From the NCBI GenBank assembly GCA_964510525.1, contig CAZECE010000141.1:9338-73337 (forward strand): a stretch of DNA of 64,000 nucleotides. The letters are read 5' to 3'. A program made the translations under genes and the position numbers. This DNA is from an uncultured Pseudomonadales bacterium. GTDB taxonomy: Bacteria > Pseudomonadota > Gammaproteobacteria > Pseudomonadales > JANQJO01. Below, piece after piece: positions 28,702 to 59,972 of the stretch. Every line of letters begins with the position of its first letter. The stretch's first letter is position 1. Under the pieces are notes generated by a model. The model was not told the DNA's origin. It was given only the letters and a program-made list of their open reading frames with translations, and made no database searches.

Positions 28702-30261
28702 GTGAACATAACTTACGTTTTAGAATTATTAAAAGCCATGTATCGGGAGTACAACAATTATGCTCCCTGGTGTTGGTTGGTGTTTGTTTTGATTGCTACC
28801 GCGGTCATTATTCTGGGCTATCGTTGGCCCCAGATATATGAATCTTCAACCGATATCATGGCGGTTGAAAGCAGTGTTGGCGATTTAATGCGTGGCCATG
28901 TCGTTGGTATTGAAATCAATGAGCGCAATGCAAAAGAGGATCTATTCAGTCGCAGTATTATTCGTTCGGTGATCGAAGCAGGGGGTTGGACGGGACCGGA
29001 TGGAGAGCCTCTGACACCCATTCAGTTGCAGCTTTTGGGGCAAAGTGTTCGTCGTAATACCAAGGTGAAAAAGGTCGGCGCTGGGATTTTGAGGATCAGC
29101 TATCAAGACGCCGATGCTCAAAGAGCGTTTCTTGTGGCTTCAAAATACGCAGAGATGTTTGTCGCTGAAACAACCGAAAGGCAAAAGAGTGAAAGTCAGG
29201 CCGCTTATGATTTCATCGACAAACAAGTAGCGGCTTATCATAAAAAGTTACAAGAAGCCGAAACAAACTTAAAACAGTATCGCGCCAGAAACCTAGGGGT
29301 AAACGCGGGCGGAGAAAATGAAGTATTTGGGCATTTATCCAATCTACAGCAGCGCTTAGAGCAGACCGAGTTAGCTCTAAAAGAGGCCTTAATTCGTAAG
29401 CACTCTTTGGAAGGTCAGCTGTCCGGTGAGATATCGCAAAGCCGAGTGGCCATGAGAACCTTGTCATTGCAGCAAAAGGCCCAAGAACTTCAAGCTAAGC
29501 TGGATACGATGCGTTTAACCTACCACGATACCTACCCGGATATTGTGCAAATCAAACAACAAATAGCCGAGATCAAAGCCTCGATTCGACGCGGAGGGTC
29601 GTCTGATGATAGGTATCTTGTGCCTTCTTCCGATTCAAAAGAAGATCAATATTCGCCTCTCTATCAACAGTTGCGCGGTGATTTGGCTGCGGTCAATACA
29701 GAAATCGACCTGCATCGTGTTCGTATTGACGAGGTCAATAAGCTGATTCAACAAGTGCGAGGCAAGATGGTATCTATTAATGAAAGCGCTGTAATTGAAG
29801 CGGAAATGGTGCGCGATTACGAAGTGAATCAGGGCATTTATCAAAGTTTGTTACAAAAACGCGAAAACGCTCGCTTGTCCATGGATGTCGACAAAGAGGG
29901 CAAAGGCGTGACCTATAAAGTGCGTCAACCCGCCAATCTGCCGCTCTTACCTACGGGCATGCGTTTTCTGTATTTTTTGGTGATTGGGCCTATTTTAGGG
30001 GTATTGGTGCCTATTGGGTGTTTGTTTGCGCTGGTGCAATTTGATGGGCGGATACGCAACCTCAGCATAATCTCCAAAGTGCTGAGCCCTCCTATCATGA
30101 TGTCAATGACTTTGAGTGATGAGCAAATGGCTTTTCGGTACAAGCCTGTAATGGTTGGTTTGGGGGCGGTATTGTTGATTTATGGAGTCATGATCGCACT
30201 TCGTTTAAGTGGTTTTGATGTTGCAGGTTCTGCATTAGACATAATCGGAGGGGCGCGCTGA
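28702..30261 (+). CDS. Polysaccharide chain-length determinant (Wzz/Wzc N-terminal part)
   Basis: Two TMs flanking a long coiled coil, YHDTYPDIV, RDYEVN...Y..LL.KRE.A. Confidence 0.85.
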   Translation: MNITYVLELLKAMYREYNNYAPWCWLVFVLIATAVIILGYRWPQIYESSTDIMAVESSVGDLMRGHVVGIEINERNAKEDLFSRSIIRSVIEAGGWTGPDGEPLTPIQLQLLGQSVRRNTKVKKVGAGILRISYQDADAQRAFLVASKYAEMFVAETTERQKSESQAAYDFIDKQVAAYHKKLQEAETNLKQYRARNLGVNAGGENEVFGHLSNLQQRLEQTELALKEALIRKHSLEGQLSGEISQSRVAMRTLSLQQKAQELQAKLDTMRLTYHDTYPDIVQIKQQIAEIKASIRRGGSSDDRYLVPSSDSKEDQYSPLYQQLRGDLAAVNTEIDLHRVRIDEVNKLIQQVRGKMVSINESAVIEAEMVRDYEVNQGIYQSLLQKRENARLSMDVDKEGKGVTYKVRQPANLPLLPTGMRFLYFLVIGPILGVLVPIGCLFALVQFDGRIRNLSIISKVLSPPIMMSMTLSDEQMAFRYKPVMVGLGAVLLIYGVMIALRLSGFDVAGSALDIIGGAR

Positions 30262-31070
30262 TGAATACCGTCGATTTTAAGAAAGATTCGGTTATAAAAA
30301 GTTCTGGTTTTCAAGATCAGGCGAAAGAGCCTGCAGACGCAGTGACGATCAACCTCAAGTCATCCTCTTCAAACCTAACCTCAGCGAATCCATCTCCCCC
30401 AATAAAGTCGATGGTCGAGCCAAACTATTTAAGCTTTGAACAATTAAAATCGCATAATATTATTTATCCATTTTCAGAAAACACGAAAATGGTGGATCAG
30501 TATCGAGAATTGAGAACGTCGTTACTTGAGCTTTACGGCAATAAAAACAAGATTACGATGGTGTGTTCGGTCTTGCCAGGAGGCGGGAGCACGCATGTTG
30601 CCGTGAATTTAGCGGCAGCTTTTGCTTTTGATGAGATGAAAACGGCGCTCTTGATGGATTGTAACTTGAGAAATTCAGCATTGGCTGAGCGTTTGTATGT
30701 CGATGCGGATGCGGGCTTAACGGATTTTCTGCACGAAGAGGTTATGGGGATCGATAACATTATTTACCCGACGGGTATTGCGCGTTTGCGATTGATCCCA
30801 ACAGGTAAAAGCACCAACATCGCGCCCGAGCACTTCACCTCGAATAGAATGAGGGACTTGTTGGATCTGTTAAAGGATCGTTATCAAGATCGGTATATTT
30901 TTCTCGATGCGCCGCCACTAACCTATTCTGCGGACGCTAAAATTTTGGCGGGCTTGTGTGATCATATTTTATTGGTGGTACCTTATGGTCGAGTTTTAGA
31001 GTCGCAGCTAGAAGCTACGTTGAATGTGATTGGCAAGGATAAAATAGCGGGTGTGATTTTAAATCAATAA
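30261..31070 (+). CDS. BY-kinase-like (CpsD/Wzc C-terminal) protein with degenerate Walker A
   Basis: YRELRTSL, SVLPGGGST, LLMDCNLR, YIFLDAPP; translationally coupled to the chain-length gene. Confidence 0.8.
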   Translation: MNTVDFKKDSVIKSSGFQDQAKEPADAVTINLKSSSSNLTSANPSPPIKSMVEPNYLSFEQLKSHNIIYPFSENTKMVDQYRELRTSLLELYGNKNKITMVCSVLPGGGSTHVAVNLAAAFAFDEMKTALLMDCNLRNSALAERLYVDADAGLTDFLHEEVMGIDNIIYPTGIARLRLIPTGKSTNIAPEHFTSNRMRDLLDLLKDRYQDRYIFLDAPPLTYSADAKILAGLCDHILLVVPYGRVLESQLEATLNVIGKDKIAGVILNQ

Positions 31071-33491: not shown

Positions 33492-35195
33492 TTAATGCCC
33501 TGATGTGACTCTATCGACTTCTTCAATGCTGGTAACGCCGGCTTTGATCTTCTCTAATCCAGAGGCCCTTAAATCATTAAAGCCTTCTTTTTGACAGGCG
33601 TCAGCAATTTCAATGGAATTGCCATCTTGCATGATGATTCGTGCGATTGGGTCGGTGATTTGAACCACCTCATAAATCCCTACCCGACCTTTATAGCCGG
33701 CATTGCACTTTTCACAGCCGACGGGCCCATAGACCACAGCCTCTTCGAGATCCTCCTCATCAAATCCCAGTTCGATGAGTGATTCAGGCGGAATATCAAC
33801 CGGTTCTTTACAGTTACTGCATAACCTTCTGGCCAGCCGCTGAGCGATAATCAAGGAAACGGACGTGGCGATATTAAATGAGGGCACGCCCATGTTTCTT
33901 AGGCGGGTTAGGGTTTCAGGCGCACTGTTGGTGTGTAAGGTGGATAAGACCAAATGGCCCGTTTGAGCCGCCTTGATGGCGATTGAAGCCGTTTCTAAAT
34001 CGCGAATCTCACCCACCATCACGATATCTGGATCCTGACGTAAGAAGGCTCGTAACGCTGAGCTGAAATCCAGGCCAACCTTGGGGTTTACGTTGACCTG
34101 ATTAATGCCTTCTAAGTTAATCTCAACGGGATCTTCCGCCGTCGAGATATTCCGCTCAGGGGTATTCAGAATATTCAAGCCGGTATACAACGAAACGGTT
34201 TTACCACTGCCGGTTGGGCCGGTGACCAGAATCATGCCCTGGGGTTGTTCCAGCGCATTTAAATACATGGCTTTTTGATCTTCCTCATAGCCGAGCATAT
34301 CAATACCCAGTTTGGCACTGTCTGGATCCAGAATCCGCAAACAGATTTTCTCCCCCCAGAGCGTGGGAAGGGTATTGACCCGAAAATCAATGGCTTTCTT
34401 GGCGGAAACTTTCAATTTAATCCGCCCGTCTTGCGGAATTCGGCGCTCTGAGATGTTCATTGAGGACATCACTTTTAAACGCGCCGCTATTTTGCTGGCC
34501 GTATTAACGGGAGGTCGGGTGATTTCTTTTAAAATACCATCCGATCGAAAGCGTACTCGGTAGGCTTTTTCATAGGGTTCAAAGTGAATATCGGAAGCCC
34601 CGATTTTGATGGCATCAAATAAGACTTTATTGACGAATTTAACAATGGGGGCATCTTCAGCGCCATCATCATCAACGTCACCTCCGCCATCAACATGGAC
34701 GTCGCCATCCAGCTCGACCAGTTCGTCGTCATCAATGTCTAAGCCGCCGCTGCTGCTATCAAAGAGTTGTTCGATGGTGTCGCTCAGTTTATCGAAGGCC
34801 ACCACAACGGGATCGATGTTCAGTCCGGTATTAAATTTGATGTCATCGAGGGCTTGTATGTTACTCGGATCCGCCAGAGCCACATAGAGGATGCTGCCAC
34901 GCTTAAATAAGGGCAGAACCAAATGCTTTTTGATCAGTTGTTCTTGAACCAAATCGACCGGCATGTGGCTGGGGTCGATCGATTCAAGTAACAGCAGGGG
35001 AGTACCGAACTCTTCACTGGCGGCTTTAGCGACTTTTTTAGCCGCAACCAAATTATTGGTAACCAAATGCTCGACGAGAGAGACTTTTTCTTTACGCGCC
35101 GCCTCTTCAGCCTCAGCCAAAGTGCTCTCTTCGATGATCTCTTCTGCGACTAAACGCATACCGAGCGCACTGAACGTTTTTGAACTGGCTACCAT
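33492..35195 (-). CDS. pilB: Type IV pilus assembly ATPase
   Basis: GPTGSGKT, AEDPVE, LRQDPD, TGHLVLSTLHTN, Zn-binding CSNC/CEKC. Confidence 0.97.
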   Translation of the reverse strand: MVASSKTFSALGMRLVAEEIIEESTLAEAEEAARKEKVSLVEHLVTNNLVAAKKVAKAASEEFGTPLLLLESIDPSHMPVDLVQEQLIKKHLVLPLFKRGSILYVALADPSNIQALDDIKFNTGLNIDPVVVAFDKLSDTIEQLFDSSSGGLDIDDDELVELDGDVHVDGGGDVDDDGAEDAPIVKFVNKVLFDAIKIGASDIHFEPYEKAYRVRFRSDGILKEITRPPVNTASKIAARLKVMSSMNISERRIPQDGRIKLKVSAKKAIDFRVNTLPTLWGEKICLRILDPDSAKLGIDMLGYEEDQKAMYLNALEQPQGMILVTGPTGSGKTVSLYTGLNILNTPERNISTAEDPVEINLEGINQVNVNPKVGLDFSSALRAFLRQDPDIVMVGEIRDLETASIAIKAAQTGHLVLSTLHTNSAPETLTRLRNMGVPSFNIATSVSLIIAQRLARRLCSNCKEPVDIPPESLIELGFDEEDLEEAVVYGPVGCEKCNAGYKGRVGIYEVVQITDPIARIIMQDGNSIEIADACQKEGFNDLRASGLEKIKAGVTSIEEVDRVTSGH

Positions 35196-39740: not shown

Positions 39741-41672
39741 CTAAATATTTAAAAGGCTGTATTCTGTCTTTTCAATTAACATTTGGTATATTTTTTTCTG
39801 ATTGGCGTTTAATTTTTCGACATTTAATTGTTGGAGTAATTCCTTGCTTTTGTTAAGTTTATTTGATTGAAAGAGCATGATTGCCATTTCTAGTTGGTGA
39901 GAATAATTATTTGGTTCAGTGTTAATGGCTTTTTTTAAGTAGTGTAAGGCTATCTCCGGAGTACCTTGAGATTCTATGTAATGCGCAATTTGAGAATAGA
40001 TGTGAGCTTTAAAATAAGGCAGAACTGTTGGATTATCTTCAAAAGCCAACACAATTTTATTGATAAGAGCAGTTTTTGTTTTGCAGGCCTGATTAATGTT
40101 ACAAATAAAAAATTCCTGGATGCGCTTCATGTTTTCGCGCTCTATTTGGACGGTTTTTATTCTGAAAAGTAGTTCTTCAACCCAGGCGTCTTCGGGGGGA
40201 GCACCTACTGATTCATTCAACCTAAGCAGAGCAAAAAGTCCGGATAAGTCGATGTCCAAGTTTAGGTATGTTTGTTCGAAAGCCTCTTTAGCCCGTATGT
40301 AGTTTTCAGATCTGGCGGAGGGCGATTCTTCAAACTGTAACGATAAATAATACCATCTCCCAGCATTGTGTTGTGTGCGATTTGAGCTTGGATTCTTTAG
40401 TGCTTCTGATGCTACAAGGCTTGGCATGTCTTTCCAGTGTTGAGCTCTGAGTGCAGTTGCGCTCAGTAAAATGAGAAAAATAATAGGTAGAATGATGTTG
40501 GCCTTCAAGTTCATATGTGTTATTTCACATGCCTTGATAAGCAGGCCTGAAACTGCTAATAAAATCCCTATCATTGGGAAATAATTTCGATGTTCGTGTA
40601 CGAGTTCGAGAGATAGAATACTGGATTCTATGCTGTGGCTGGTAAGAAACCACAGAGTTCCGAAAAAGAACAATGGTACTGATTTCCGGAATTTAAATGC
40701 TCCTAAGATGACAAAAATCCAAGCAAAAATAGAGAAAGCGGTCGTAGGCTCAAGTAAACTGACAGACTTTTTTATATCATCGTGAAAAAGACTCATTTTT
40801 AGAATATTGGGCAATATTATTTGGTATACGTAAAACCAGAGAACCCTTGTTTGGGTCATGAGTCTTTCATAGATGGTGTAACCACGATTGCTGTAGATAT
40901 TGACCCACCAATCCCAGTTGAAAGCAATACTGATCAATAGGATTGCTATGATCAGCCAGCAACTGCTAACTATACAAGTTAATATAGAGCGCTGTTTGGG
41001 ATCTTTGGTTTCTTTTTTAAAGAAAACGGTTTCTGTTGCCAAGATAATAAAGCCGATAACCACACCATTTTCTTTGCATAGAATGGCGCATATACCAAAA
41101 ATCAAGCACAAGAAAAATGGAAATAAATGATAGCCTTGGTGGTTGATTAAAGTTATACGCCACTTTAAATAAAAGCTGTAGCTCAATACCATAAAGAAAA
41201 AGCACATAGTGGCCATGCGTTGGACAACATAAAGTACTGATGTGAGATTAAAGGGGTGGGCGGCCCAAACAATAGCAAGAAAAATGGGCAGCTTATTTCT
41301 TGCGAAAATTAAGTGTGATTGGTTCTCATCTCTGAAAACTATTCTCATTAACAGAGTCAAACACCAAGCAAGCGCAAAGGTATTAGCCAAGTGTATGATT
41401 AGATTCGTTACTTTGAAGGGGAATGGGTCAAGGCCAAAGTAATATTTTGTAATGGCTAAGGACAAAATGGGAATCGGTCTGCCAAGGGGACCAGTTTCTG
41501 AAAGAAATGCTATTTCTGCTAGTGAGCTGGGGCTTATGTTTTTAAGTATGATGTCTTCGTTTTCTACTAGCGTAGGAAAATCATCGAAAACATAAGGGCC
41601 GTTGAGGGCTGGGGCGTATGCAATTAAAACTAATATTAAAAATGGAAGTAATCTAAGGAGTGTGAGCTTCAC
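39741..41672 (-). CDS. GT-C multi-TM glycosyltransferase with TPR-like tail (TfpW/TMTC-like), directly downstream of pilA
   Basis: YVFDDF acidic motif after TM1, GRPI, HPFNLTSVLYVVQR, KENG, EHRNYFP; about 11 TMs then helical repeats. Confidence 0.75.
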   Translation of the reverse strand: MKLTLLRLLPFLILVLIAYAPALNGPYVFDDFPTLVENEDIILKNISPSSLAEIAFLSETGPLGRPIPILSLAITKYYFGLDPFPFKVTNLIIHLANTFALAWCLTLLMRIVFRDENQSHLIFARNKLPIFLAIVWAAHPFNLTSVLYVVQRMATMCFFFMVLSYSFYLKWRITLINHQGYHLFPFFLCLIFGICAILCKENGVVIGFIILATETVFFKKETKDPKQRSILTCIVSSCWLIIAILLISIAFNWDWWVNIYSNRGYTIYERLMTQTRVLWFYVYQIILPNILKMSLFHDDIKKSVSLLEPTTAFSIFAWIFVILGAFKFRKSVPLFFFGTLWFLTSHSIESSILSLELVHEHRNYFPMIGILLAVSGLLIKACEITHMNLKANIILPIIFLILLSATALRAQHWKDMPSLVASEALKNPSSNRTQHNAGRWYYLSLQFEESPSARSENYIRAKEAFEQTYLNLDIDLSGLFALLRLNESVGAPPEDAWVEELLFRIKTVQIERENMKRIQEFFICNINQACKTKTALINKIVLAFEDNPTVLPYFKAHIYSQIAHYIESQGTPEIALHYLKKAINTEPNNYSHQLEMAIMLFQSNKLNKSKELLQQLNVEKLNANQKKIYQMLIEKTEYSLLNI

Positions 41673-41838: not shown

Positions 41839-42318
41839 TTAGATTCGACAATCAGTTGGTAAATACCGATCAGGGATGGTTGTGTTATCTGTCGCAGCTC
41901 CAGCTTGATTGACTCCAGCTGCAGGAAAGGCAGCACCACCACATATCCATACAAGGTTCTGTGCAGTATTTTCAGCAGGGTAGATTGTCAAAGTAGTACC
42001 TGTTATGGCTGCGTTAGCTCTAGCACCCATGGCTACATCGATTTCACCGCTGTCACCAATATCAATTTGGGTTACATAGTTGCCATCATAACTGATAGCT
42101 GTGGCTAAACCTGCAGTGGCGTTATCATTCGGTAAGAAGCCTCGAGCGGCATAATAGTCTGAAATAGCCGTTTTGAACTCACCAGCCATCGCCATAGCTT
42201 CTGTAACTTGAGCTCGTATCGTGTAATCTTTGTATTGCGGTACAGCTACAGCAGCCAAAATGCCGATAATAGCAACAACAATCATTAATTCAATAAGCGT
42301 AAAACCTTTCTGTTTCAT
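41839..42318 (-). CDS. pilA: Type IVa major pilin
   Basis: [29 protein letters not shown] with Glu+5, and a C-terminal disulfide loop (WICG...LPTDC). Confidence 0.97.
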
Positions 42319-42827: not shown

Positions 42828-43976
42828 ATGAAAAGAGAATTTCTACTTTTTGCTAGCAGTACAGTTATTTGCTTACTACTAACTGGAATAGTAATCAAAA
42901 GTTTTTTTCCACAACTTGTATCTACAAATACTGATTTACAGTTAGTACAAATTGATAAAAAAGTCCCCGCTTATTTTGAACATATATTTAGGCTTTCTGA
43001 TTACAACGCTCAAAAATTTATATTACAAGATCCAATAACTCGTGTCAGGGCTGCACCTCTTTTTGATATTGGGCCGAATGCATCGATGGGTCCAAATGAT
43101 CTTTTAGGGTTTCGGAATAAATCTATCCCTAATAAGGCTGATGTTGTTTTTATTGGCGATAGTCAAACTTATGGGAATAACGCATCTATTAATGAAAATT
43201 GGCCAGCCCATTTTTTAAAGAATTCTGTTGCACATTCTTCTGGTTATTCAATGTCAGTAGGGGGTTGGGCTGCTTTACAATATTTTTATATGTCTAAATT
43301 TACAGTCGTTTTTAATCCTAAAACGGTGATAATTGCTTTTTACTCAGGAAATGATTCATTAGAAAGTTTTGGTTTAGCCTATGCTTCGGCATATTGGCAA
43401 GATTTTCGTATTGACCCTAATTTAACAAGCGATGCCATGCCAAAAGTAAATTTTCCACCAAAAGAAGAAGAAATTTGGGGGGTGAGGTTTGACGAAGGGG
43501 ATCCTATTGCTTTTACCCCTACACTCCGACTGTCTTCAAATGCAAACACCCCGGCAGCGATGACGGGTTGGAAAATCATGATGAATACTATGCAAGTATT
43601 GGATGATAGCTTAAAAGGCCTGGGTTCTAGCTTAAAAACAGATTTTTTCGTTACCGTTATTCCTACTAAAGAGTTGACTTATTCGGAACGTATTAAGCGT
43701 GATTTTGGACAAAAACAACTAATTGATCCAATATACCAAACATTAGTTGAGCGTGAGCAAGCTAACATTGAGCTGTTCCAGCAATCAATGCAGTCTTTAA
43801 CTGTGATTAAATTCATCGATGTAGTTGAACCCCTAAAAAATGCGGCCCTTTTGTCCTTAGATTTATACCCTAGAAATCCAGATGGGCATCCATTACCTGA
43901 AGGTTATCAAGTGATTGGTCGCTCTCTTGCTAGAGAAGTTTATTCATTAAAAAATCTTGAGGCTGAAACTAAATAG
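42828..43976 (+). CDS. Membrane-anchored SGNH-family protein
   Basis: N-terminal TM, GDSQTYG, GGW, YSGND and DGHP catalytic blocks. Confidence 0.8.
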   Translation: MKREFLLFASSTVICLLLTGIVIKSFFPQLVSTNTDLQLVQIDKKVPAYFEHIFRLSDYNAQKFILQDPITRVRAAPLFDIGPNASMGPNDLLGFRNKSIPNKADVVFIGDSQTYGNNASINENWPAHFLKNSVAHSSGYSMSVGGWAALQYFYMSKFTVVFNPKTVIIAFYSGNDSLESFGLAYASAYWQDFRIDPNLTSDAMPKVNFPPKEEEIWGVRFDEGDPIAFTPTLRLSSNANTPAAMTGWKIMMNTMQVLDDSLKGLGSSLKTDFFVTVIPTKELTYSERIKRDFGQKQLIDPIYQTLVEREQANIELFQQSMQSLTVIKFIDVVEPLKNAALLSLDLYPRNPDGHPLPEGYQVIGRSLAREVYSLKNLEAETK

Positions 43977-45019
43977 TGCGTTTCAAGATGGTTTCGATAA
44001 GCATACTGATTAAGAATATATTGACCTCGTGCTTATCTTTATTGCTTATAGTTGCCGTAATTGAAATTTTGCTGCAACTCATGCCATTCGTTTCCCATGC
44101 TCCTGAGACGATCTCTATTAATATGGATCAGCCTATTAAGCGCTATAAAGTGCATGATGAGTTTGTTTATGCAAAAGGTCGATTTGGAGACATTGTACAA
44201 AAACATAAAACTAATGAACTGGGTTTCAATACGCCTATCTCTTTTATAAAAGATAAACCGACTCATTGTATGATTGGAGATTCCTATGTAGAGGCGATGC
44301 AGGTAAGCTCAGATGACTCTTTTCATGGTCTATTGAATCAAAATGATGTGTCTGTTTATCCAATAGCATCCAGTGGATCGCCTTTAAGTCAATACATTGC
44401 TTATGCAAAGTGGGCTATAAGAGAATTTAATTGCCAAAAATTGTTTTTTTTCATTATTGAAAATGATTTTGATGAGAGTTTAATATCCGTTAAAAATGCA
44501 CCAGGTTTCCATTACTTTAATGAAAAAGGGCTGCTTACTTTGGTGGAGCACAAAAAGTCTCAATTAAAGGATGGTTTGAAAAACCTTGCTTTAATTAATT
44601 ACTTGCACACAAACCTCGAAATTTCTCGGCTTATTTCGCAGAATCAATCGAGTGACAACAGTTTTGATTCAGACTCTCTAGATAGAAAAGTAAAGAATTC
44701 AATTCACGCCATAGATTTTTTTTTCGAGCATCTACTAAGAATTTCTTTTTCGTTGCAGGATGTAGTTATGGTGTTGGATGGTGATAGGCACTCTATTTAT
44801 AACAATTACACTGATAGGCAAGGGTATAACGCTGTAGTTTATGATTACTTTAAGGACAAGCTAGATGCGTTAAACATCGAAAAGATCGACTTGCACCCCA
44901 TTTTTTTTCAACATTACAAAGAAAATAATAATCAGTTTAACTTTAAGACCGACTATCATTGGAATGAAGTGGGCCACGAGGTTGTCTCTAAAGCATTATT
45001 GACATCAAATCTGATGTAA
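43976..45019 (+). CDS. Membrane-anchored SGNH/AlgX-like protein
   Basis: N-terminal TM, GDSYVEA, ENDF, DYHWN. Confidence 0.8.
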   Translation: MRFKMVSISILIKNILTSCLSLLLIVAVIEILLQLMPFVSHAPETISINMDQPIKRYKVHDEFVYAKGRFGDIVQKHKTNELGFNTPISFIKDKPTHCMIGDSYVEAMQVSSDDSFHGLLNQNDVSVYPIASSGSPLSQYIAYAKWAIREFNCQKLFFFIIENDFDESLISVKNAPGFHYFNEKGLLTLVEHKKSQLKDGLKNLALINYLHTNLEISRLISQNQSSDNSFDSDSLDRKVKNSIHAIDFFFEHLLRISFSLQDVVMVLDGDRHSIYNNYTDRQGYNAVVYDYFKDKLDALNIEKIDLHPIFFQHYKENNNQFNFKTDYHWNEVGHEVVSKALLTSNLM

Positions 45020-45057
45020 TAATGATTTTAAGCTGAATGATGTACATTTATTTAAGG

Positions 45058-46893
45058 TTAATCCAATTCGTATTGGGTTTCATATCTGGTGCTTAATGCC
45101 GGGTTTTGGTCATCTTTATACATGACATGGTTACCTATAACCAATACATCTAAGCCTGTTCCCATGAAACATTTAAAGGCATCTTCAGGGGATTCAACAA
45201 TGGGCTCACCTCTAACATTAAAAGAGGTATTCACTAAAATTGGACATTCTGTCAAGTCATAAAATTTTTGCAGTAAACTATGATACATCGGGTTAGTATC
45301 TTGGTGGACTGTTTGAATACGTGCGCTGTCATCGACATGTGTGATTGCTGGAATTACAGAGTTTTTAATATTAAGTTTGTCGATACCAAACAACAGCTTC
45401 TGGTCTTCTGTGAGCGGTACTTTGTGTTGATCCAAGATTTCAGCGACTAACAGCATATAAGGGCTATCAGTAGTTAAATCAAAGTACTTGTATAAATAAT
45501 CAGCCAAGATCGAGGGCGCGAAGGGCCTAAAAGATTCTCGAAATTTTATTTTTAAGTTTAAATTTTTCTGCATGGTTTCAGATCTTGGGTCAGCCAATAT
45601 AGATCGGCCCCCTAGAGCTCGGGGTCCAAATTCCATACGCCCTTGAAACCAGCCTACGGCCTTTCCTTCTGCAAGTGCTTCAGCCGTTTTTCTGAGCATT
45701 ATCTCGTCTTCAACATAATCAAATTGAGCACCCAGTTGCTCCAGTTGCTGACGGGTGTCTGAGTCACTATATTCTGTTCCCAGATAAGCGCCTTGCATGG
45801 AATCTGGCTTCATAATGTTTCTGGGTTGTGCTTTTTCAAGGTGCCAATAAGCTAGGGCGGCTCCAACAGCTCCTCCGGCATCGCCTGCAGCGGGTTGAAC
45901 CCAAAGAGACTCAATGGGCGTATGTTTTAAAATCTTGCCATTGGCCACACAGTTTAGAGCAACGCCACCTGCCATGCAGAGGTTAGGAATTTTATATTCC
46001 TTATAAAGGTGACTAATCATCTTTATTAAAACAGTTTCAGTGACAGCTTGTACGGATGCGGCTACATCCATATGAAATTGAGAAAGCTCGGACTCTGATT
46101 CTCTAACAGGGTGATTAAATAAAGCTGAGAACCTTTTGTTGGTCATTCTTAGCCCTGTACTGTAATCAAAATAGTGTTGATTTAACCGGAATGAACCATC
46201 TGCTTTGATGTCGATTAGATTATCTAAAATTATATTTTGATAAATAGGGTTACCATAAGGGGCAAGTCCCATGACTTTGTATTCACCGCTGTTAACTTTA
46301 AACCCTAAATAATAAGTAAATGCAGAATACAAAAGCCCCAATGAATGGGGAAAATGTATTTCTTTTTCAATGGAAAGATTGTTGTTATCTCCGATGCACA
46401 GTGCCGTTGTGGTCCACTCACCCACGCCGTCAATAGTGAGAACAAGGGCTTTTTCAAAAGGTGATGGAAAAAAAGCGCTGGCAGCATGGCTAATATGGTG
46501 CTCTGAAAATCGGAGTTTTTCTTCAAAATTGATGTTTGAATCAATTTTTTTTAGAGATTCAATTAGACTTTTTTTTTGGAAGAGTTTTTCTTTGACCCAA
46601 ATAGGAATCGAGTGCGTAAAAGACTTAAAGCCAAAGGGCGCATTAGCAACGTAGGTTTCCAATAGGCGTTCAAATTTTAGAAAGGGTTTGTCATAAAATA
46701 CAATATTATCAATTTCGTTGAGTTTTAGGCTGGTTTCATCAAGTAATCGTATGATGGCATTATGAGGAAAACTAGCATCATGTTTTATTCTGGTAAACCG
46801 TTCTTCTTGTGCAGCAGCAAGAATACTTCCATCTTTAATGATGGCGGCCGCGCTATCGTGATAATAACCAGAAATTCCTAATATGATCGACAT
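45058..46893 (-). CDS. O-carbamoyltransferase (NodU/CmcH/SxtI family)
   Basis: HDSAAA, QEERFTRIKH, HHISHAASAF, EYKVMGLAPYG, GRMEFGPRALGGRS, RESFRPFAP, NTSFNVRGEPI. Confidence 0.95.
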   Translation of the reverse strand: MSIILGISGYYHDSAAAIIKDGSILAAAQEERFTRIKHDASFPHNAIIRLLDETSLKLNEIDNIVFYDKPFLKFERLLETYVANAPFGFKSFTHSIPIWVKEKLFQKKSLIESLKKIDSNINFEEKLRFSEHHISHAASAFFPSPFEKALVLTIDGVGEWTTTALCIGDNNNLSIEKEIHFPHSLGLLYSAFTYYLGFKVNSGEYKVMGLAPYGNPIYQNIILDNLIDIKADGSFRLNQHYFDYSTGLRMTNKRFSALFNHPVRESESELSQFHMDVAASVQAVTETVLIKMISHLYKEYKIPNLCMAGGVALNCVANGKILKHTPIESLWVQPAAGDAGGAVGAALAYWHLEKAQPRNIMKPDSMQGAYLGTEYSDSDTRQQLEQLGAQFDYVEDEIMLRKTAEALAEGKAVGWFQGRMEFGPRALGGRSILADPRSETMQKNLNLKIKFRESFRPFAPSILADYLYKYFDLTTDSPYMLLVAEILDQHKVPLTEDQKLLFGIDKLNIKNSVIPAITHVDDSARIQTVHQDTNPMYHSLLQKFYDLTECPILVNTSFNVRGEPIVESPEDAFKCFMGTGLDVLVIGNHVMYKDDQNPALSTRYETQYELD

Positions 46894-46925
46894 GTCTTAT
46901 GTTTCTTATATTCGTAAAACAGATT

Positions 46926-47075
46926 TTAAAATAATGTGTAAATAAATGGTGCCACTGCCGAGCCTTGAGCTAAGACAATTAAACCACCAAAAACTGAAAT
47001 CACAACAACGATAGGCATCAGCCAATATTTTTTTCGAATTTTTAAAAATTGCCAAAGCTCTTTAATAAAGGACAT
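46926..47075 (-). CDS. 49-aa membrane peptide, DUF5989/SxtK-like (absent from ORF track)
   Basis: Hand translation: MSFIKELWQFLKIRKKYWLMPIVVVISVFGGLIVLAQGSAVAPFIYTLF*. Lies between the sxtJ-like gene and the carbamoyltransferase, same strand. Confidence 0.88.
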   Translation of the reverse strand: MSFIKELWQFLKIRKKYWLMPIVVVISVFGGLIVLAQGSAVAPFIYTLF

Positions 47076-47084
47076 AATTTGACT

Positions 47085-47504
47085 CTAAAATTGATTTTTC
47101 ATGGGCTGGATCGGATGAGTGGATTTGTCTCGTGAGATCCAGTAGCTTTCTAAATTTTTATCATAATGCTGATGTATTAAGTCCCCTTTAATCAGCCTCA
47201 TTAGTAACCCGGTGGGAGTAACCACACAGAAAAAAATGAGTCCCATAATAATTGGAGAAATGATCTTGTGAAGTAACAGGCCAAATTTAAACCAATAATA
47301 ATTTGGCATTCTAAGTATTTTTGGGTAAATAACTGAGATAACAAGAATGATTGCGCCGCAACTTATAGCCCAAAGCCTAATTTGATTTGAATAAAGCAGC
47401 GGCCATAAGCCGATAATCATAAAGACTAGGGTAAAGACGATGCCAAAACTGCGTTCTGATGGCAAAGTGGTATTATTTACTGGTTCAGTACTTTTAGAAT
47501 TCAT
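47085..47504 (-). CDS. SxtJ-family membrane protein
   Basis: ERSFG, two or three TMs, WFKFG.LL...SPIIMG.IFF.V.TP.GLLMR, SYWI.R...MKNQF. Confidence 0.85.
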   Translation of the reverse strand: MNSKSTEPVNNTTLPSERSFGIVFTLVFMIIGLWPLLYSNQIRLWAISCGAIILVISVIYPKILRMPNYYWFKFGLLLHKIISPIIMGLIFFCVVTPTGLLMRLIKGDLIHQHYDKNLESYWISRDKSTHPIQPMKNQF

Positions 47505-55700: not shown

Positions 55701-56331
55701 TGAGTACCATGAATCACGTTTAACGTATGATCCAAAGCGAGAAATTTTATGGAAGACATTGGTAACATACTATTTCCAGAAAATGATTTCTGAAGATGCG
55801 CATGTGTTAGAGTTAGGGGCCGGTTATTGTGATTTTATTAATCATGTTAAAGCAAACAAAAAAATGGCTTTGGATCTCTGGCCTGGGGTAGTTGATTATG
55901 CAGCTAATGATGTTGAGTGTGTGGTTTCGGATATTGCTGGAGAATTAGATATTTCAGACAACACTTTGGATTTTGTGTTTGCGAGTAATATTTTTGAACA
56001 TATTTCACAGGAAAAGTTAGCTGAAACGCTGTTAAATTTGAAAAAAAAATTAAAGAAAACGAGTACTCTTTGTATTTTGCAACCAAATTATCGATTTGCT
56101 TACAAAGAGTATTTTGATGATTATACGCATGTATCTATTTGGTCGGATGTTTCATTAAGTGATTTTTTACACGTTAATGGCTTCAGAGTTAGGCGTATTC
56201 ACCCTGGTTTTTTGCCATTATCAATAAAGTCCCGTCTGCCAACGCACCCTTGGTTGATTCGAGCGTATCTAAAAAGCCCCATTAAACCCTTAGCTAAACA
56301 GATGTTATTGTTTGCGGAGCCAGTTTCGTGA
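55693..56331 (+). CDS. Class I SAM-dependent methyltransferase
   Basis: LELGAGYCDF, FASNIFEH, QPNYR.AY.EYFDDYTH. Confidence 0.85.
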   Translation: MGNEYHESRLTYDPKREILWKTLVTYYFQKMISEDAHVLELGAGYCDFINHVKANKKMALDLWPGVVDYAANDVECVVSDIAGELDISDNTLDFVFASNIFEHISQEKLAETLLNLKKKLKKTSTLCILQPNYRFAYKEYFDDYTHVSIWSDVSLSDFLHVNGFRVRRIHPGFLPLSIKSRLPTHPWLIRAYLKSPIKPLAKQMLLFAEPVS

Positions 56332-58115
56332 ATGTATTAAGTCTATTTAACAGCAATAGGCGTTTTATAAATGTTGTGGCTATTGTATTTTTGGTTTTTT
56401 ACACGATCTGGCTATATTATCCAACAATTTATTTTGATTTTGTTTATTTTGATGACGATCGTTTGCTGTTGAGGCATTCGATGTTATACGAATGCACAAC
56501 GCTTAGTGCGTGCTTTAATGCTTTCTTAACTCATATTCCGGAGTGTGAAGAACCACTGGTTATCAGAAATTTAACTTGGTTGTTGGATGCGAAGATATTT
56601 GGGTTTCAGAACCCGATGGGGTATCACATATCAAATATACTTTACCATGCATCTGTAGTAGTTCTGGCATTTGTTTTTCTTCTTAGATTTACCCGTCACT
56701 TTTATCTTTCTTTTCTTGTGACTTTTTTATATTCATCTCTAGCTATTCACACTGAATCTGTTGGGTGGATCATGGGAAGAAAGGATATTTTGTCTGGTGT
56801 TTTTTTATTTCTCCTTCTAAATACAGAAATATCTTATTCAAAAGCAGTTAATTATAAAAATAAGTACTCTTTATATTTTATAACCATTTTGTTAGTAACA
56901 ATGGCCTGTTTATCTAAAATATCTTCACTTTCTTTTTGCTTTGTTTTATTGATGTTTAAATTGATAACAAATAAAGATGCTTGTCATGATTATTTTTTCA
57001 GAAGATCAATTTTAGAAGTCATACCACATTTTACAATATCATTATTCTTGTACGTGTGGTATGCCTCGATTTTAGAGCCTATTGTGCTTAATAAAACCGC
57101 AGAGTTTTCTTATTTTGAAAAAATTTATATTTTACTTTTTGTAAATCCATTAGTATTTCTAAAATACTTAATGTTAATACTCAGTCCAGCTAAGCTTTCT
57201 GTAGTTTATAGTTGGCAGGGTATCCATGAAGTTAATAGTGCCTTTGATTGCGTTCTATCTGCAGCAGTACTATTTACACTTTCTGGATTTTTGATTTTCC
57301 TATTTAAAAAGAGGTTCTACAAGTCTGTTTTCTGTTTTTTATCTGTGTTGGCTTTGCTTGCTCCATATTCTAATCTTGTAAATTTTGGATGGTGGTATGC
57401 TAATAGATATATATACGTGGCTTCATTTTTTTTAATTGCAGCAATCGGTATAGCTATAAAAAAAATAGCTAATAGTCGCGTTAGAAAAATATTGGTTAAT
57501 ACTTTTTTTATTTGTATTCTTTTGATAAATACCGTGCAAGCAAAACTACATATTCCTGCATGGAAAAATATTGATAACTTTTGTGATCACCATCTGGCCG
57601 TCTCTCAAACTAAACAGGCTACAATTAGCTGGTGTATTAAAATTGTCGAAAATTACTCTAATTATTATCCTGATGAAAAAAGGCAAGCCATTTTAAAGAG
57701 ATGGTTAGAGATCGCATTAGAATCTTCAAAAGAAGTTTTTGATAATGATTTAAGAATTAGAAAAGATTATGCATTACTAAATTACAGTATTGGGCGCTTA
57801 TATTTTTTGTTAGGCGTATCGTTAGATAAGCAACTTTACTATTACAAACGATCCTTTGAATTAGATTCAGATTATTTAGAATCAAGCTTTACATTAGCTC
57901 AAGCTTATTTAGAAAAAATCAGATTAAATAATGGAGAACATAAAAATAATAAAGAGTGGATTGAATTGTCGGCAATGTACTTCGTACACTATTTTAAAGA
58001 GGTGGATTGGAATTTAGAGGTGCAAAATCAATATGACTTATTTTTTCCTATGTTCTCAAATTATCCAGAAGTACAAAAAAGACTTGAAGATGTAAGAAGC
58101 GAAAGAGTTAGGTGA
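56328..58115 (+). CDS. TMTC-like GT-C glycosyltransferase, paralog A
   Basis: FVYFDDD, YHISN, HTESVGWIMGRKDIL, SKIS, ANRYIY; multi-TM with helical C-terminal tail. Confidence 0.75.
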   Translation: MNVLSLFNSNRRFINVVAIVFLVFYTIWLYYPTIYFDFVYFDDDRLLLRHSMLYECTTLSACFNAFLTHIPECEEPLVIRNLTWLLDAKIFGFQNPMGYHISNILYHASVVVLAFVFLLRFTRHFYLSFLVTFLYSSLAIHTESVGWIMGRKDILSGVFLFLLLNTEISYSKAVNYKNKYSLYFITILLVTMACLSKISSLSFCFVLLMFKLITNKDACHDYFFRRSILEVIPHFTISLFLYVWYASILEPIVLNKTAEFSYFEKIYILLFVNPLVFLKYLMLILSPAKLSVVYSWQGIHEVNSAFDCVLSAAVLFTLSGFLIFLFKKRFYKSVFCFLSVLALLAPYSNLVNFGWWYANRYIYVASFFLIAAIGIAIKKIANSRVRKILVNTFFICILLINTVQAKLHIPAWKNIDNFCDHHLAVSQTKQATISWCIKIVENYSNYYPDEKRQAILKRWLEIALESSKEVFDNDLRIRKDYALLNYSIGRLYFLLGVSLDKQLYYYKRSFELDSDYLESSFTLAQAYLEKIRLNNGEHKNNKEWIELSAMYFVHYFKEVDWNLEVQNQYDLFFPMFSNYPEVQKRLEDVRSERVR

Positions 58116-58166: not shown

Positions 58167-59972
58167 ATGAATAAATTAACTCAACTAATTAGAAGTAATC
58201 AAATATTAAGTATGGTAGTTGTTGCTTTTTTATTTGGTTACTCTATTTTCTTGTATCTTCCAAGCATCCAATTCGATTTTGTTTATTTTGATGATGATCG
58301 CTTGGTATTAAGGCAGGGTGTTTTTTATGACTGTGGAGGTTTTAGTGATTGTGTTAAGGCGTTTATTAATTACATTCCTACCGCAGAAGAGCCTTTAATA
58401 TTTAGAAATGTAACATGGTTAGTGGATGCCAAAATCTTTGGTCATGAAAATCCATTTGGTTATCATTTAGGAAATGTTGTATACCATGCTTTGGTAATCG
58501 TATTCGCTTTTATTTTTCTTTACCGTTTTACAAAAAAAATCATTCCATCTTTTCTAGCTGTTTTCTTATACGCCTCTCTGGCTATTCATACCGAGTCAGT
58601 GGGTTGGATTATGGGTCGTAAGGATATTTTATCAGCTCTTTTTTTATTTTTACTATTAAACGTGGAGCTTTATTATTTTAAAGCTAAAAAATTAAGAAAC
58701 AAAAGTACATATTACTCTCTGACTCTGCTGCTTATTTCTCTGGCTTGTTTGTCGAAAATTTCAGCCATTACTTTTTGTATTATCTTATTTCTATTTAAGA
58801 TATTGCTTAATATACAAGAGAATAAAATTCTTTTAAAAAAATCTCTGTTAGAGACTTTACCTCACATATTCGTGTCTGTTTTGATTTATCAATGGTATAG
58901 CGGGGTTCTGGAAGTCAGTGGTGTACTAAAAATTTCGACACAATTTTCGTTGATGGAAAAGCTGTACATTCTGTTTGTCATAGATCCGCTGGTTTTGATC
59001 AAATACATTTTTTTAGTTTTAAGCCCACATAAATTATCAGTTTCATATCAGTGGTTGGGTATTGAAGAAAAGCTTAGCGTTTACGATTATGGGCTTTCTT
59101 TTTTGGTTATTATAACCTGCTTGTTAATATTGTGTCATTTAGTGATAAAGAAAAAGTATAGAATTAGTTTCTTTTTTCTCTCTTTATTTTTTTTACTCAT
59201 TCCTTATTCGAATATGGTTAATTATGGTTGGTGGTATGCCAATCGATATTTTTACGTAGCCTCATTTTTTCTGATTTCTTCGGCTGTGATTTTTTTAAGT
59301 GATTTTACTTTTAGTCGAATAGCTAAAATAGCAATGTCTTTTCTTTATATTAGTTTAATTGTCATTAATGTTGTACAAATAAAAGCACATTTACCTGTTT
59401 GGAAAGATTCAGATTCACTTTGTAATCATCATTTGTCCATTTCAAGATTTAAGAAAGGGACTGTTAAATGGTGTATGAAAATAATAGAAAATCACTCTTA
59501 TGATTTGCCTAAAGAACAAAAGAATAAGATGCTCTCTAAATGGTTATCGTTGGGTATTAAGGCTTTAGAATTTGAAAATGATGATGAATATAGTGTCACT
59601 AAAACGGATTTCATACTTAATTATCGTGTGGGGCGGTATTTGTATTTGTTGAAAGCTCCTTTGGATCAGCAAATACATTATTTCCAACGTTCTTTTGAAT
59701 TAAATCCAAAATTTCCAGATGCGAGTTTTGCCTTAGCTCAGTCTTATTTTGGGTTGGTAAGTATAAATAGCGATTCACTAGTGGCTAATAAATTTGCAGA
59801 GATCTCTGGTCAGTATTTTATGCGGTATTTTGAAAATGTAGTATGGAACCCATCGGCTGAAGCTCAGTTTGAACCAATTTATTTGGCGTTTTCGGATCAT
59901 CCGGAAATTCAAAGTAATCTCTTAAAGATAAAAAATGTAAAAACACAAAAAGTAAAAAATGGTTTTCACTAG
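58167..59972 (+). CDS. TMTC-like GT-C glycosyltransferase, paralog B
   Basis: Same motifs as paralog A, aligned by eye over the full length (FVYFDDD, EEPL, HTESVGWIMGRKDIL, GWWYANRY). Confidence 0.75.
   Translation: MNKLTQLIRSNQILSMVVVAFLFGYSIFLYLPSIQFDFVYFDDDRLVLRQGVFYDCGGFSDCVKAFINYIPTAEEPLIFRNVTWLVDAKIFGHENPFGYHLGNVVYHALVIVFAFIFLYRFTKKIIPSFLAVFLYASLAIHTESVGWIMGRKDILSALFLFLLLNVELYYFKAKKLRNKSTYYSLTLLLISLACLSKISAITFCIILFLFKILLNIQENKILLKKSLLETLPHIFVSVLIYQWYSGVLEVSGVLKISTQFSLMEKLYILFVIDPLVLIKYIFLVLSPHKLSVSYQWLGIEEKLSVYDYGLSFLVIITCLLILCHLVIKKKYRISFFFLSLFFLLIPYSNMVNYGWWYANRYFYVASFFLISSAVIFLSDFTFSRIAKIAMSFLYISLIVINVVQIKAHLPVWKDSDSLCNHHLSISRFKKGTVKWCMKIIENHSYDLPKEQKNKMLSKWLSLGIKALEFENDDEYSVTKTDFILNYRVGRYLYLLKAPLDQQIHYFQRSFELNPKFPDASFALAQSYFGLVSINSDSLVANKFAEISGQYFMRYFENVVWNPSAEAQFEPIYLAFSDHPEIQSNLLKIKNVKTQKVKNGFH

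Follow-up and report, generated by a model that had tools for sequence, protein, structure and literature searches.

We analysed a window of 64,000 nucleotides (nt) from an uncultured Pseudomonadales bacterium (contig CAZECE010000141.1), which here denotes the whole stretch of DNA under study, and focused on a microprotein of 49 amino acids (aa), referred to as K, that is encoded in a polysaccharide island of this window. K is a member of the DUF5989/SxtK type, its gene lies between those of an SxtJ-family membrane protein and a TobZ-type O-carbamoyltransferase, and the protein ends in the hexapeptide that serves as a tyrosine acyl shuttle in DltX and in AlgI/PatA-type MBOAT proteins. Judged from the sequence data, K is a plausible carbamoyl shuttle, that is, a covalent variant of the known tyrosine relay principle; we estimate the probability of this reading at roughly 0.5.

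46926..47075, minus strand: DUF5989/SxtK-type microprotein K, 49 aa (Pfam E 4e-27), under purifying selection

The microprotein K and its C-terminal hexapeptide

Translation of the K frame yields MSFIKELWQFLKIRKKYWLMPIVVVISVFGGLIVLAQGSAVAPFIYTLF followed by the stop codon. An earlier note had described this small, apparently unannotated open reading frame (ORF) as a 49-aa peptide with an amphipathic helix, one transmembrane segment and the end APFIYTLF, and this description was confirmed by the translation and by the Pfam DUF5989 model (PF19451), which covers positions 1-49 of 49 and scores 94.5 bits (E 4e-27, cutoff 27), placing K in the family over its full length and above the gathering score. 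Direct reading reveals a basic, amphipathic N-terminal segment (K5, K12, R14, K15 and K16), a single hydrophobic span of approximately W18-A36 and an uncharged tail; the C-terminal part consists of a Gly/Ser/Ala linker and the hexapeptide F44-I-Y46-T-L-F49, in which Tyr46 is encoded by the codon at 46938-46940. A short helix ahead of the transmembrane helix is also present in the AlphaFold2 (AF2) model of a relative in which K is joined by read-through to its SxtJ-family neighbour J. As the net charge of K is +4 before the transmembrane helix and zero after it, the positive-inside rule predicts an N-in/C-out orientation, the AF2 model leaving the tail unplaced. In many public plasmid records the homologous ORF carries no listed feature, the gene table of that collection being incomplete.

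Nucleotide diversity in 73 orthologous copies, a sample in part chosen by the motif, amounted to 0.24, 0.09 and 0.58 at codon positions 1, 2 and 3, and synonymous single-base codon differences outnumbered nonsynonymous ones by 7.1:1. Residues 38-47 and 49 were constant across these copies, with third positions saturated; the tail, predicted to be extracytoplasmic, is the most constrained part of K. The earlier note had allowed for the peptide not being translated, and indeed a spurious ORF of the same window shares the F.Y..F ending; nevertheless, a frame that is open by chance would explain neither the family match at E 4e-27, nor the 3167 cluster representatives matching K in a library of 1.8 billion proteins, nor the contrast between 0.58 at third and 0.09 at second codon positions, nor a synteny that is kept across phyla. 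Selection pattern, Pfam match and synteny all speak for a real gene, and the K frame is regarded as such; an untranslated chance frame can be dismissed for practical purposes. K is far better conserved than its neighbour J, showing 73-86% identity to its 120 closest database homologs compared to only 45-57% between J and its best matches. Pelagibacter was the commonest genus among the nearest named K homologs; as its genomes have a G+C content of about 30%, compared to 41.6% for the window, the host is probably no canonical SAR11 bacterium.

The earlier note had drawn attention to a terminal Tyr motif shared by K and the MBOAT of the island (59959-61332), and both ends, APFIYTLF and SPFLYFQF, were read directly and conform to PF[IL]YxxF before the stop codon. 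Among the 548 stop-to-stop ORFs of at least 40 aa in the window, three end in F.Y..F, compared to 0.07-0.12 expected from shuffling or from the internal frequency of the motif. The third one is a spurious ORF of 58 aa (34102-34278, plus strand), which runs antisense inside a PilB-like ATPase gene and ends in FKYMAF. Since such an ORF shares the ending, the terminal motif in a single ORF is weak evidence and not diagnostic, and the weight therefore rests on conservation across the family.

This conservation is pronounced. F[IV]Y..F forms the end of 116 out of 120 close K homologs and of 119 out of 150 cluster representatives at 50% identity, the latter being the best of the 3167 DUF5989 matches; in most of the remaining 31 representatives the motif is present and is followed by an apparent read-through or frameshift extension. 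The end APFIYT[LI]F was found in K of a cyanobacterial plasmid, of planctomycete plasmids, of Methylosinus and of Sinorhizobium, and APFIYTxF in K of Cyanobacteria, Planctomycetota, Bacteroidota, Acidobacteriota, Gemmatimonadota, Nitrospirota, Omnitrophota, Parcubacteria and others, part of this cross-phylum set having been fetched by the APFIYTxF motif itself. The intact members sampled, which come from more than 15 mostly Gram-negative phyla, all have the APFIYTxF end. As an independent record of conservation, point mutants of K were scored against the Pfam DUF5989 model (wild type 94.5 bits). The losses were 8.4 bits for Y46A, 5.6 for Y46F, 4.9 for I45A, 4.6 for P43A, 3.8 for W8A, 3.4 for F44A, 3.1 for G38A, 3.0 for F49A and 2.0 for T47A. 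None of the other eight positions scored is as informative as Tyr46, and a Phe in its place is also heavily penalised, which argues for a need of the Tyr hydroxyl and not of the ring alone. Taken together, the homolog sets and the mutant scores show Tyr46 to be effectively invariant across DUF5989, so that the lack of conservation considered in the earlier note does not apply.

The same hexapeptide is known from characterised acyl relays. In DltX, the invariant Tyr of a C-terminal acyl-shuttle hexapeptide (FXYXXF) bears D-alanine, which is then handed over to the SGNH protein DltD, whereas AlgI/PatA-type MBOATs have the hexapeptide fused to their own C-terminus; PatA auto-acetylates its hexapeptide Tyr, and PatB takes an acetylated FIYANF peptide as donor (PMC12148441). 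The motif that the earlier note had named for these proteins is thus literally the tail of K, a single-pass microprotein with FIYTLF as its last six residues. In addition, direct reading of K, DltX and the window MBOAT gave the same spacing of 9-10 residues between the end of the helix and the Tyr.

Linkage of K with SxtJ, a carbamoyltransferase and SGNH proteins

The genes surrounding K in the window are as follows:

47085..47504, minus strand: SxtJ-family small membrane protein J, 139 aa (Pfam SxtJ E 2e-9)
45058..46893, minus strand: NodU/CmcH/TobZ-type O-carbamoyltransferase (CT), 611 aa (Carbam_trans_N E 7e-108, Carbam_trans_C E 5e-72)
43976..45019, plus strand: membrane-anchored AlgX-type SGNH protein SG2, 347 aa (Pfam ALGX E 7e-7)
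42828..43976, plus strand: second membrane-anchored SGNH protein SG1, 382 aa (weak Lipase_GDSL_2)

J lies 9 nt upstream of K on the same strand and has three hydrophobic segments; its conserved motifs are WPL as well as SERSFG, WFKFG, YWI and the C-terminal KNQF, the latter four being mostly located at predicted cytoplasmic interfaces. CT starts 32 nt downstream of K and combines both domains of the NodU/CmcH type, a Kae1-like N domain and a YrdC-like C domain; it contains a metal motif of the HHxxH type (EHHISH) and has neither a signal peptide nor a transmembrane segment. SG2 contains an N-terminal transmembrane segment and the blocks GDS, ND and D-Y-H-W, and converges on CT with a gap of 38 nt; SG1, whose stop codon overlaps the start of SG2, has an N-terminal anchor and the blocks GDSQ, GNDS and D-G-H. 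The catalytic blocks of these SGNH partners are intact, and because basic N-termini precede the anchors, the catalytic domains are predicted to be outside.

Three samples of loci were used to evaluate this arrangement. The first comprised the 80 genome loci closest to the window K together with six plasmid loci. J, K and CT were all present in 79 out of 80 genome loci, nearly always in the order J-K-CT, and in the single exception (L079) the sequence is cut off 124 nt upstream of K. Starting from the window SGNH proteins and a Planktothrix SGNH protein, an iterated profile converged on approximately 48 ORFs in 40 loci of this sample, an SGNH ORF being located less than 500 bp from the module in about 33 of the 86 loci. 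In the recurring SGNH set, to which SG1 and SG2 belong, Pfam detected Lipase_GDSL_2 in 38 out of 50 proteins, Lipase_GDSL in 21 and ALGX in 9. Cultured carriers include Sinorhizobium meliloti 1021, whose pSymB shows the arrangement SGNH(-)/J/K/CT with K at 484417-484563, and SxtJ is also encoded by Magnetospirillum gryphiswaldense.

The second sample consisted of 120 blocks of eight kilobases fetched across phyla by the DNA pattern for APFIYTxF, 114 of which hold K (Cyanobacteria, Bacteroidota, Acidobacteriota, Planctomycetota, Gemmatimonadota, Nitrospirota, Myxococcota, Omnitrophota, Parcubacteria, Chloroflexota and others). Within these 114 loci, whose flanks are incomplete, CT was detected in 93, J in 90 and SGNH in 56. 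More than 25 gene orders were observed; in 50 loci an SGNH gene formed part of the module or adjoined it directly, and 11 times it stood between two module genes. The third sample contained 80 loci with 10-kb flanks fetched by cyanobacterial K sequences, and in the 52 loci having at least 5 kb on both sides, J was present in 51, CT in 48 and SGNH in 32. The density of SGNH genes was 0.18 per kb beside the module versus 0.018 per kb at a distance of 5-10 kb; this distance-decay table replaces an earlier proximity statistic (2-fold enrichment), which was dropped as it counted module length as space and scored tandem SGNH genes as distant. Filamentous cyanobacteria have CT-J-K and then a tandem row of two to five SGNH genes, which often starts just past the K stop codon.

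In summary, J, K and CT are found together in about 80-98% of the loci, J accompanies K in 79-98% and CT in 82-92%, and an SGNH gene, of which the window has two abutting the module, in only 44-62% family-wide. Linkage that is conserved while the order is shuffled is a classical sign of a functional unit. Its core is CT, J and K, with SGNH as a frequent fourth member. The adjacency of CT, sxtJ and sxtK had been noted earlier in the literature, where no function was assigned to it.

Several unusual loci were recorded. Two K genes, each beside its own SGNH gene (SG-K-SG-K-CT), occur in metagenome-assembled genomes of an Acidobacteriaceae and a Gemmatimonadaceae bacterium (L225, 2521-4297; L400, 3602-3748 and 9989-10135), where one carbamoyltransferase may serve several shuttle/transferase pairs. 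Apparent J-K fusions (P0154, P0233) were discarded as evidence for a complex, as a Trp occupies the expected J stop and points to an apparent TGA read-through in gene calling; the K-CT "fusions" P0123 and P0253 likewise read through the K stop and look like artefacts of gene calling or genetic code. A J-K-SGNH arrangement on a Planktothrix plasmid was considered as a CT-independent system and rejected, since a related contig has CT 4 kb downstream past two MATE genes (order: fatty acid hydroxylase, SxtJ, DUF5989, SGNH, MatE, MatE, CT); the plasmid copy, which lies in a stretch with transposase genes, is probably a decayed version.

The island also encodes an MBOAT system, 13 kb apart from the K module:

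59959..61332, plus strand: AlgI/PatA-type MBOAT with its own shuttle tail SPFLYFQF, used as comparator (Pfam MBOAT E 6e-32)
61332..62459, plus strand: AlgX-type SGNH partner of the MBOAT, 375 aa (Pfam ALGX E 5e-23)

The C-terminal end of the MBOAT reads GTNTSPFLYFQF before the stop codon, and its SGNH partner has an N-terminal transmembrane segment and the blocks GDS and D-T-H-W. Domain, C-terminal FxYxxF and the adjacent AlgX-type SGNH gene identify 59959-62459 as an MBOAT-SGNH pair of the AlgI/PatA type. MBOATs beside K modules elsewhere all end in PF[LIV]YFQF; the end AAPFIYTKF of an MBOAT in a Bryobacteraceae locus (L236, 1-1278) is a K-type tail unlike those of the other MBOATs sampled. 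We considered K as the arm of the window MBOAT and rejected this, because that MBOAT and the MBOATs adjoining other modules keep tails of their own; K is thus not a detached MBOAT tail. Neither was a loading partner of the DltB kind, an MBOAT without its own tail, found for K, the partners being CT and SxtJ. The pairing of K with a carbamoyltransferase instead of an MBOAT, as the earlier note had it, therefore stands, with CT recurring in the K loci and the nearby MBOATs self-tailed. The MBOAT and its SGNH protein are a separate acylation system, so that the island holds two parallel envelope-modification systems (59959-62459 and 42828-47504). MBOAT-SGNH pairs adjoin K modules in other genomes as well (L005, L029, L370, L398-L400), and the same polymer may be both acetylated and carbamoylated.

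This frequent co-location of MBOAT-SGNH pairs bears on the question of which group K would carry. An acetyl or aminoacyl group could be supplied by another donor, CT being a co-located tailoring enzyme that is mechanistically separate. A plasmid locus of Methylosinus sp. C49 (L085, 3932-9994) might point in this direction, as an AMP-binding enzyme and a hypothetical protein of 79 aa are encoded directly upstream of SGNH-SxtJ-DUF5989-CT; the pair is reminiscent of a DltA/DltC-like adenylase and carrier and could represent a hybrid or a second donor system feeding the same shuttle. However, CT accompanies K in 82-92% of the loci in tightly packed, often overlapping operons, no other activating enzyme recurs, and the neighbouring MBOATs are self-tailed. 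We consider it very improbable that K carries a group other than carbamoyl.

The same set of four genes is known from saxitoxin biosynthesis. The cluster contains sxtI (carbamoylation), sxtJ (405 bp), sxtK (165 bp) and sxtL (GDSL lipase), for which sxtL has been proposed as a decarbamoylase and sxtJ and sxtK are listed without function (PMC2679770, PMC2885083). These genes correspond to CT, J, K and SGNH, and from family membership SxtK (ABI75101.1, cited in PMC2679770) is inferred to have a K-type tail.

A possible carbamoyl relay across the membrane

From the gene set and its linkage, the invariant motif and the sidedness predicted from charge, we infer a sequence of chemical steps in which K would be the mobile arm of a four-part envelope carbamoylation machine composed of CT, SxtJ, K and one or more SGNH proteins. 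The cytoplasmic TobZ-type CT would make carbamoyl-AMP from carbamoyl phosphate and ATP, a reaction established for this enzyme family, and would dock on a small membrane complex of SxtJ and K. The carbamoyl group would then be placed on the phenol of Tyr46, which would be held on the flexible linker of 9-10 residues at the outer face of the membrane. The resulting aryl carbamate would carbamoylate the catalytic Ser of a membrane-anchored SGNH protein (SG2 and/or SG1). As aryl carbamates are standard carbamoylating agents of serine hydrolases, this step fits general chemistry. Finally, the SGNH protein would pass the group to a hydroxyl of the exported glycan or, in biosynthetic clusters, of an exported small molecule. 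With the K tail and the SGNH domains predicted outside and CT in the cytoplasm, such a system would span the membrane like the MBOAT-SGNH systems do.

The picture of the earlier note was thereby extended. That note left SxtJ without a role, although SxtJ is an almost obligatory third member and no other protein is a candidate for the membrane conduit; support that it did not include comes from the SGNH genes adjoining the module and from sxtL beside sxtK, which is a GDSL/SGNH gene. Its free-standing Tyr shuttle is favoured by the motif, the invariance of the Tyr, the pairing with CT and the SGNH neighbours, whereas the likeness to DltX turned out to comprise motif and architecture only.

The latter point was examined with 54 different DltX proteins (43-52 aa) taken from genomes that contain the FIYNEF DNA pattern. 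In hhalign the transmembrane helix, linker and FIY of K and DltX were in register (probability 57%, P 1e-4), compared to 0.1-11% for column-shuffled DltX. Removal of the last six columns reduced the probability to 1%, and the likeness of K to DltX is therefore one of architecture and motif. The comparison of DUF5989 with the DltX and AlgI/PatA tails, which the earlier note had suggested, accordingly confirmed hexapeptide, spacing and architecture, and for DltX the sequences were not similar beyond the hexapeptide. At E up to 10, Pfam reported no match to the DltX family for K, a cyanobacterial K or the MBOAT tail; the K profile gave only chance matches to transmembrane helices among the PDB sequences, and a DltX-like query had no match there.

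Several findings weigh against the shuttle. The probability of 1% without the hexapeptide gives no evidence of homology between K and DltX, nor does it refute homology for such short peptides. CT is soluble and cytoplasmic, and its solved relatives act on hydroxyls of small molecules; the Tyr is predicted on the opposite side of the membrane with no evident route in between. The module has no channel of the size of an MBOAT or AT3 protein; SxtJ contains only some three hydrophobic segments and lacks an invariant His. Its topology is ambiguous, charge favouring a re-entrant third segment and AF2 drawing one long helix. In the AF2 model of the read-through J-K chain P0154 (unpaired multiple sequence alignment) the predicted local distance difference test (pLDDT) score was 85-95 for the J part and below 50 for the unplaced K tail, and a Foldseek search with this model against the PDB yielded nothing at E below 1. 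Approximately 40-55% of the modules are without a nearby SGNH gene; some of these, like the SGNH-less loci of the first sample, lie among unrelated housekeeping genes. About 8-10% of the K genes lack J or CT in the sequence examined. SxtK itself was not recovered: a homolog search with the Planktothrix K gave six matches and no sxt producer. Scans with the motif and with a cyanobacterial K alignment led to Microcoleus, Lyngbya, Trichodesmium and Komarekiella, with no recognisable sxt cluster. K genes with no SxtJ or CT within the eight-kilobase block (about 8%; L216, L218, L261, L287, L292, L302, L308, L313 and L317) have neighbours that look unrelated by ORF reading; their partners may be encoded elsewhere.

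Some of these findings would be accounted for if J and K were a membrane anchor or adaptor for CT, which itself would directly carbamoylate a lipid-linked sugar or a membrane-proximal small molecule. The tail would then serve J-K assembly, and the SGNH neighbours would act independently, for example as esterases or as decarbamoylases as proposed for SxtL. Relatives of CT do transfer carbamoyl straight to substrate hydroxyls, about half of the modules are without an SGNH neighbour, the J motifs with the strongest conservation map to predicted cytoplasmic interfaces, and the literature has SxtI acting with SxtJ and SxtK, and SxtL as decarbamoylase. An anchor nevertheless leaves unexplained that no part of K is more invariant than an uncharged tail across the membrane, that this tail equals the catalytic shuttle hexapeptide and is equally far from the helix, and that SGNH genes are wedged between J, K and CT. 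On balance we regard an anchor function as unlikely, though a serious alternative.

The tail might also be a non-covalent docking or pseudo-substrate peptide that recruits or gates the SGNH protein and never carries a group. SGNH transferases do recognise the hexapeptide, PatB using acetylated FIYANF as donor (PMC12148441), and the SGNH linkage data fit docking equally well as catalysis. In every characterised case, however, the Tyr hydroxyl is the chemically active atom (PMC12148441), and the loss of 5.6 bits by Y46F is not in favour of a purely structural role. Docking without catalysis therefore appears improbable, and we retain the covalent carbamoyl shuttle as the preferred reading.

Island context and comparison with known systems

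The polysaccharide genes of the island include an initiating sugar transferase, a Wza-like exporter, glycosyltransferases, methyltransferases, asparagine-synthase-like genes and a flippase-like gene, and type IV pilus genes with a pilin (41839-42318) are also present; the G+C content of the window is 41.6%. Several large ORFs of the island (643, 595, 601, 519 and 269 aa) had no Pfam match at E up to 1e-4. The Pfam-less ORFs include those at 39741-41672 (minus strand), 56328-58115 (plus), 58167-59972 (plus) and 28702-31070 (plus); the 643-aa ORF adjoins the pilin gene, and the 595/601-aa pair is located directly upstream of the MBOAT.

If the carbamoyl shuttle is true, two widespread families would gain a function, SxtJ and DUF5989, the latter with 3167 cluster representatives at 50% identity. 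The Tyr acyl-shuttle principle, which has so far been linked with MBOAT and AT3 proteins and with esters, would come to include carbamates and an unrelated loading enzyme. A reason would also be at hand why the carbamoyltransferases of envelope-glycan islands and of the saxitoxin-type gene set always occur with two tiny membrane proteins, and SxtL-type GDSL proteins would be recast as carbamoyl transferases instead of decarbamoylases. Furthermore, the shuttle would predict an overlooked extracytoplasmic O-carbamoylation of the envelope in abundant marine and soil bacteria. The term DUF5989 was absent from the literature searched, in which no paper joins an acyl shuttle with carbamoyl or SxtJ/SxtK with DltX.

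The nearest solved relatives of CT are TobZ, NovN and GdmN (E 1e-70 to 3e-91), which share its two-domain architecture but carbamoylate soluble antibiotics directly. To our knowledge, their genes have not been described with SxtJ or DUF5989 partners. The SxtI-SxtJ-SxtK(-SxtL) set of saxitoxin producers resembles the window in having Pfam SxtJ, a carbamoyltransferase, a small ORF between them and then a GDSL/SGNH gene; it belongs to an alkaloid pathway, whereas the window is a polysaccharide and type IV pilin island.

Among the Tyr relays, DltX resembles K in build: this microprotein of 43-52 aa crosses the membrane once, its N-terminus is basic, its linker is rich in Gly and Ser, and it has an extreme C-terminal FxYxxF (FIYNEF in DltX, FIYTLF in K) and an SGNH-family partner, DltD. 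In contrast to K, whose partners are a TobZ-type CT and SxtJ, DltX is loaded by the MBOAT DltB, which is itself fed by a carrier-protein thioester, and its cargo is a D-alanyl group, carbamoyl being proposed for K. The DltX proteins were sampled from Bacillota, whereas DUF5989 is found in more than 15 mostly Gram-negative phyla. MBOATs of the AlgI/PatA/WssH type carry the same terminal hexapeptide and hand their group to an SGNH protein of the AlgX/AlgJ/PatB type, but here the tail is fused to a loading enzyme with a transmembrane tunnel, while K is free-standing in a module without an MBOAT. OatA-type AT3-SGNH acetyltransferases follow the same logic, as the group is taken up by a Tyr close to the outer face and goes on to the SGNH Ser (PMC12148441); their Tyr belongs to a loop within a large AT3 membrane domain to which the SGNH domain is fused, and they involve neither a microprotein nor carbamoyl chemistry. 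Compared with the known Tyr relays to SGNH proteins, the K system would plausibly be new in its loading enzyme, its chemistry and its free-standing arm together with SxtJ. Tentatively, CT-SxtJ-DUF5989(-SGNH) might add a fourth class to the Tyr-based transmembrane relays, one that does without MBOAT and AT3 and is distributed over more than 15 phyla, in which the SGNH protein would carbamoylate glycans or exported metabolites.

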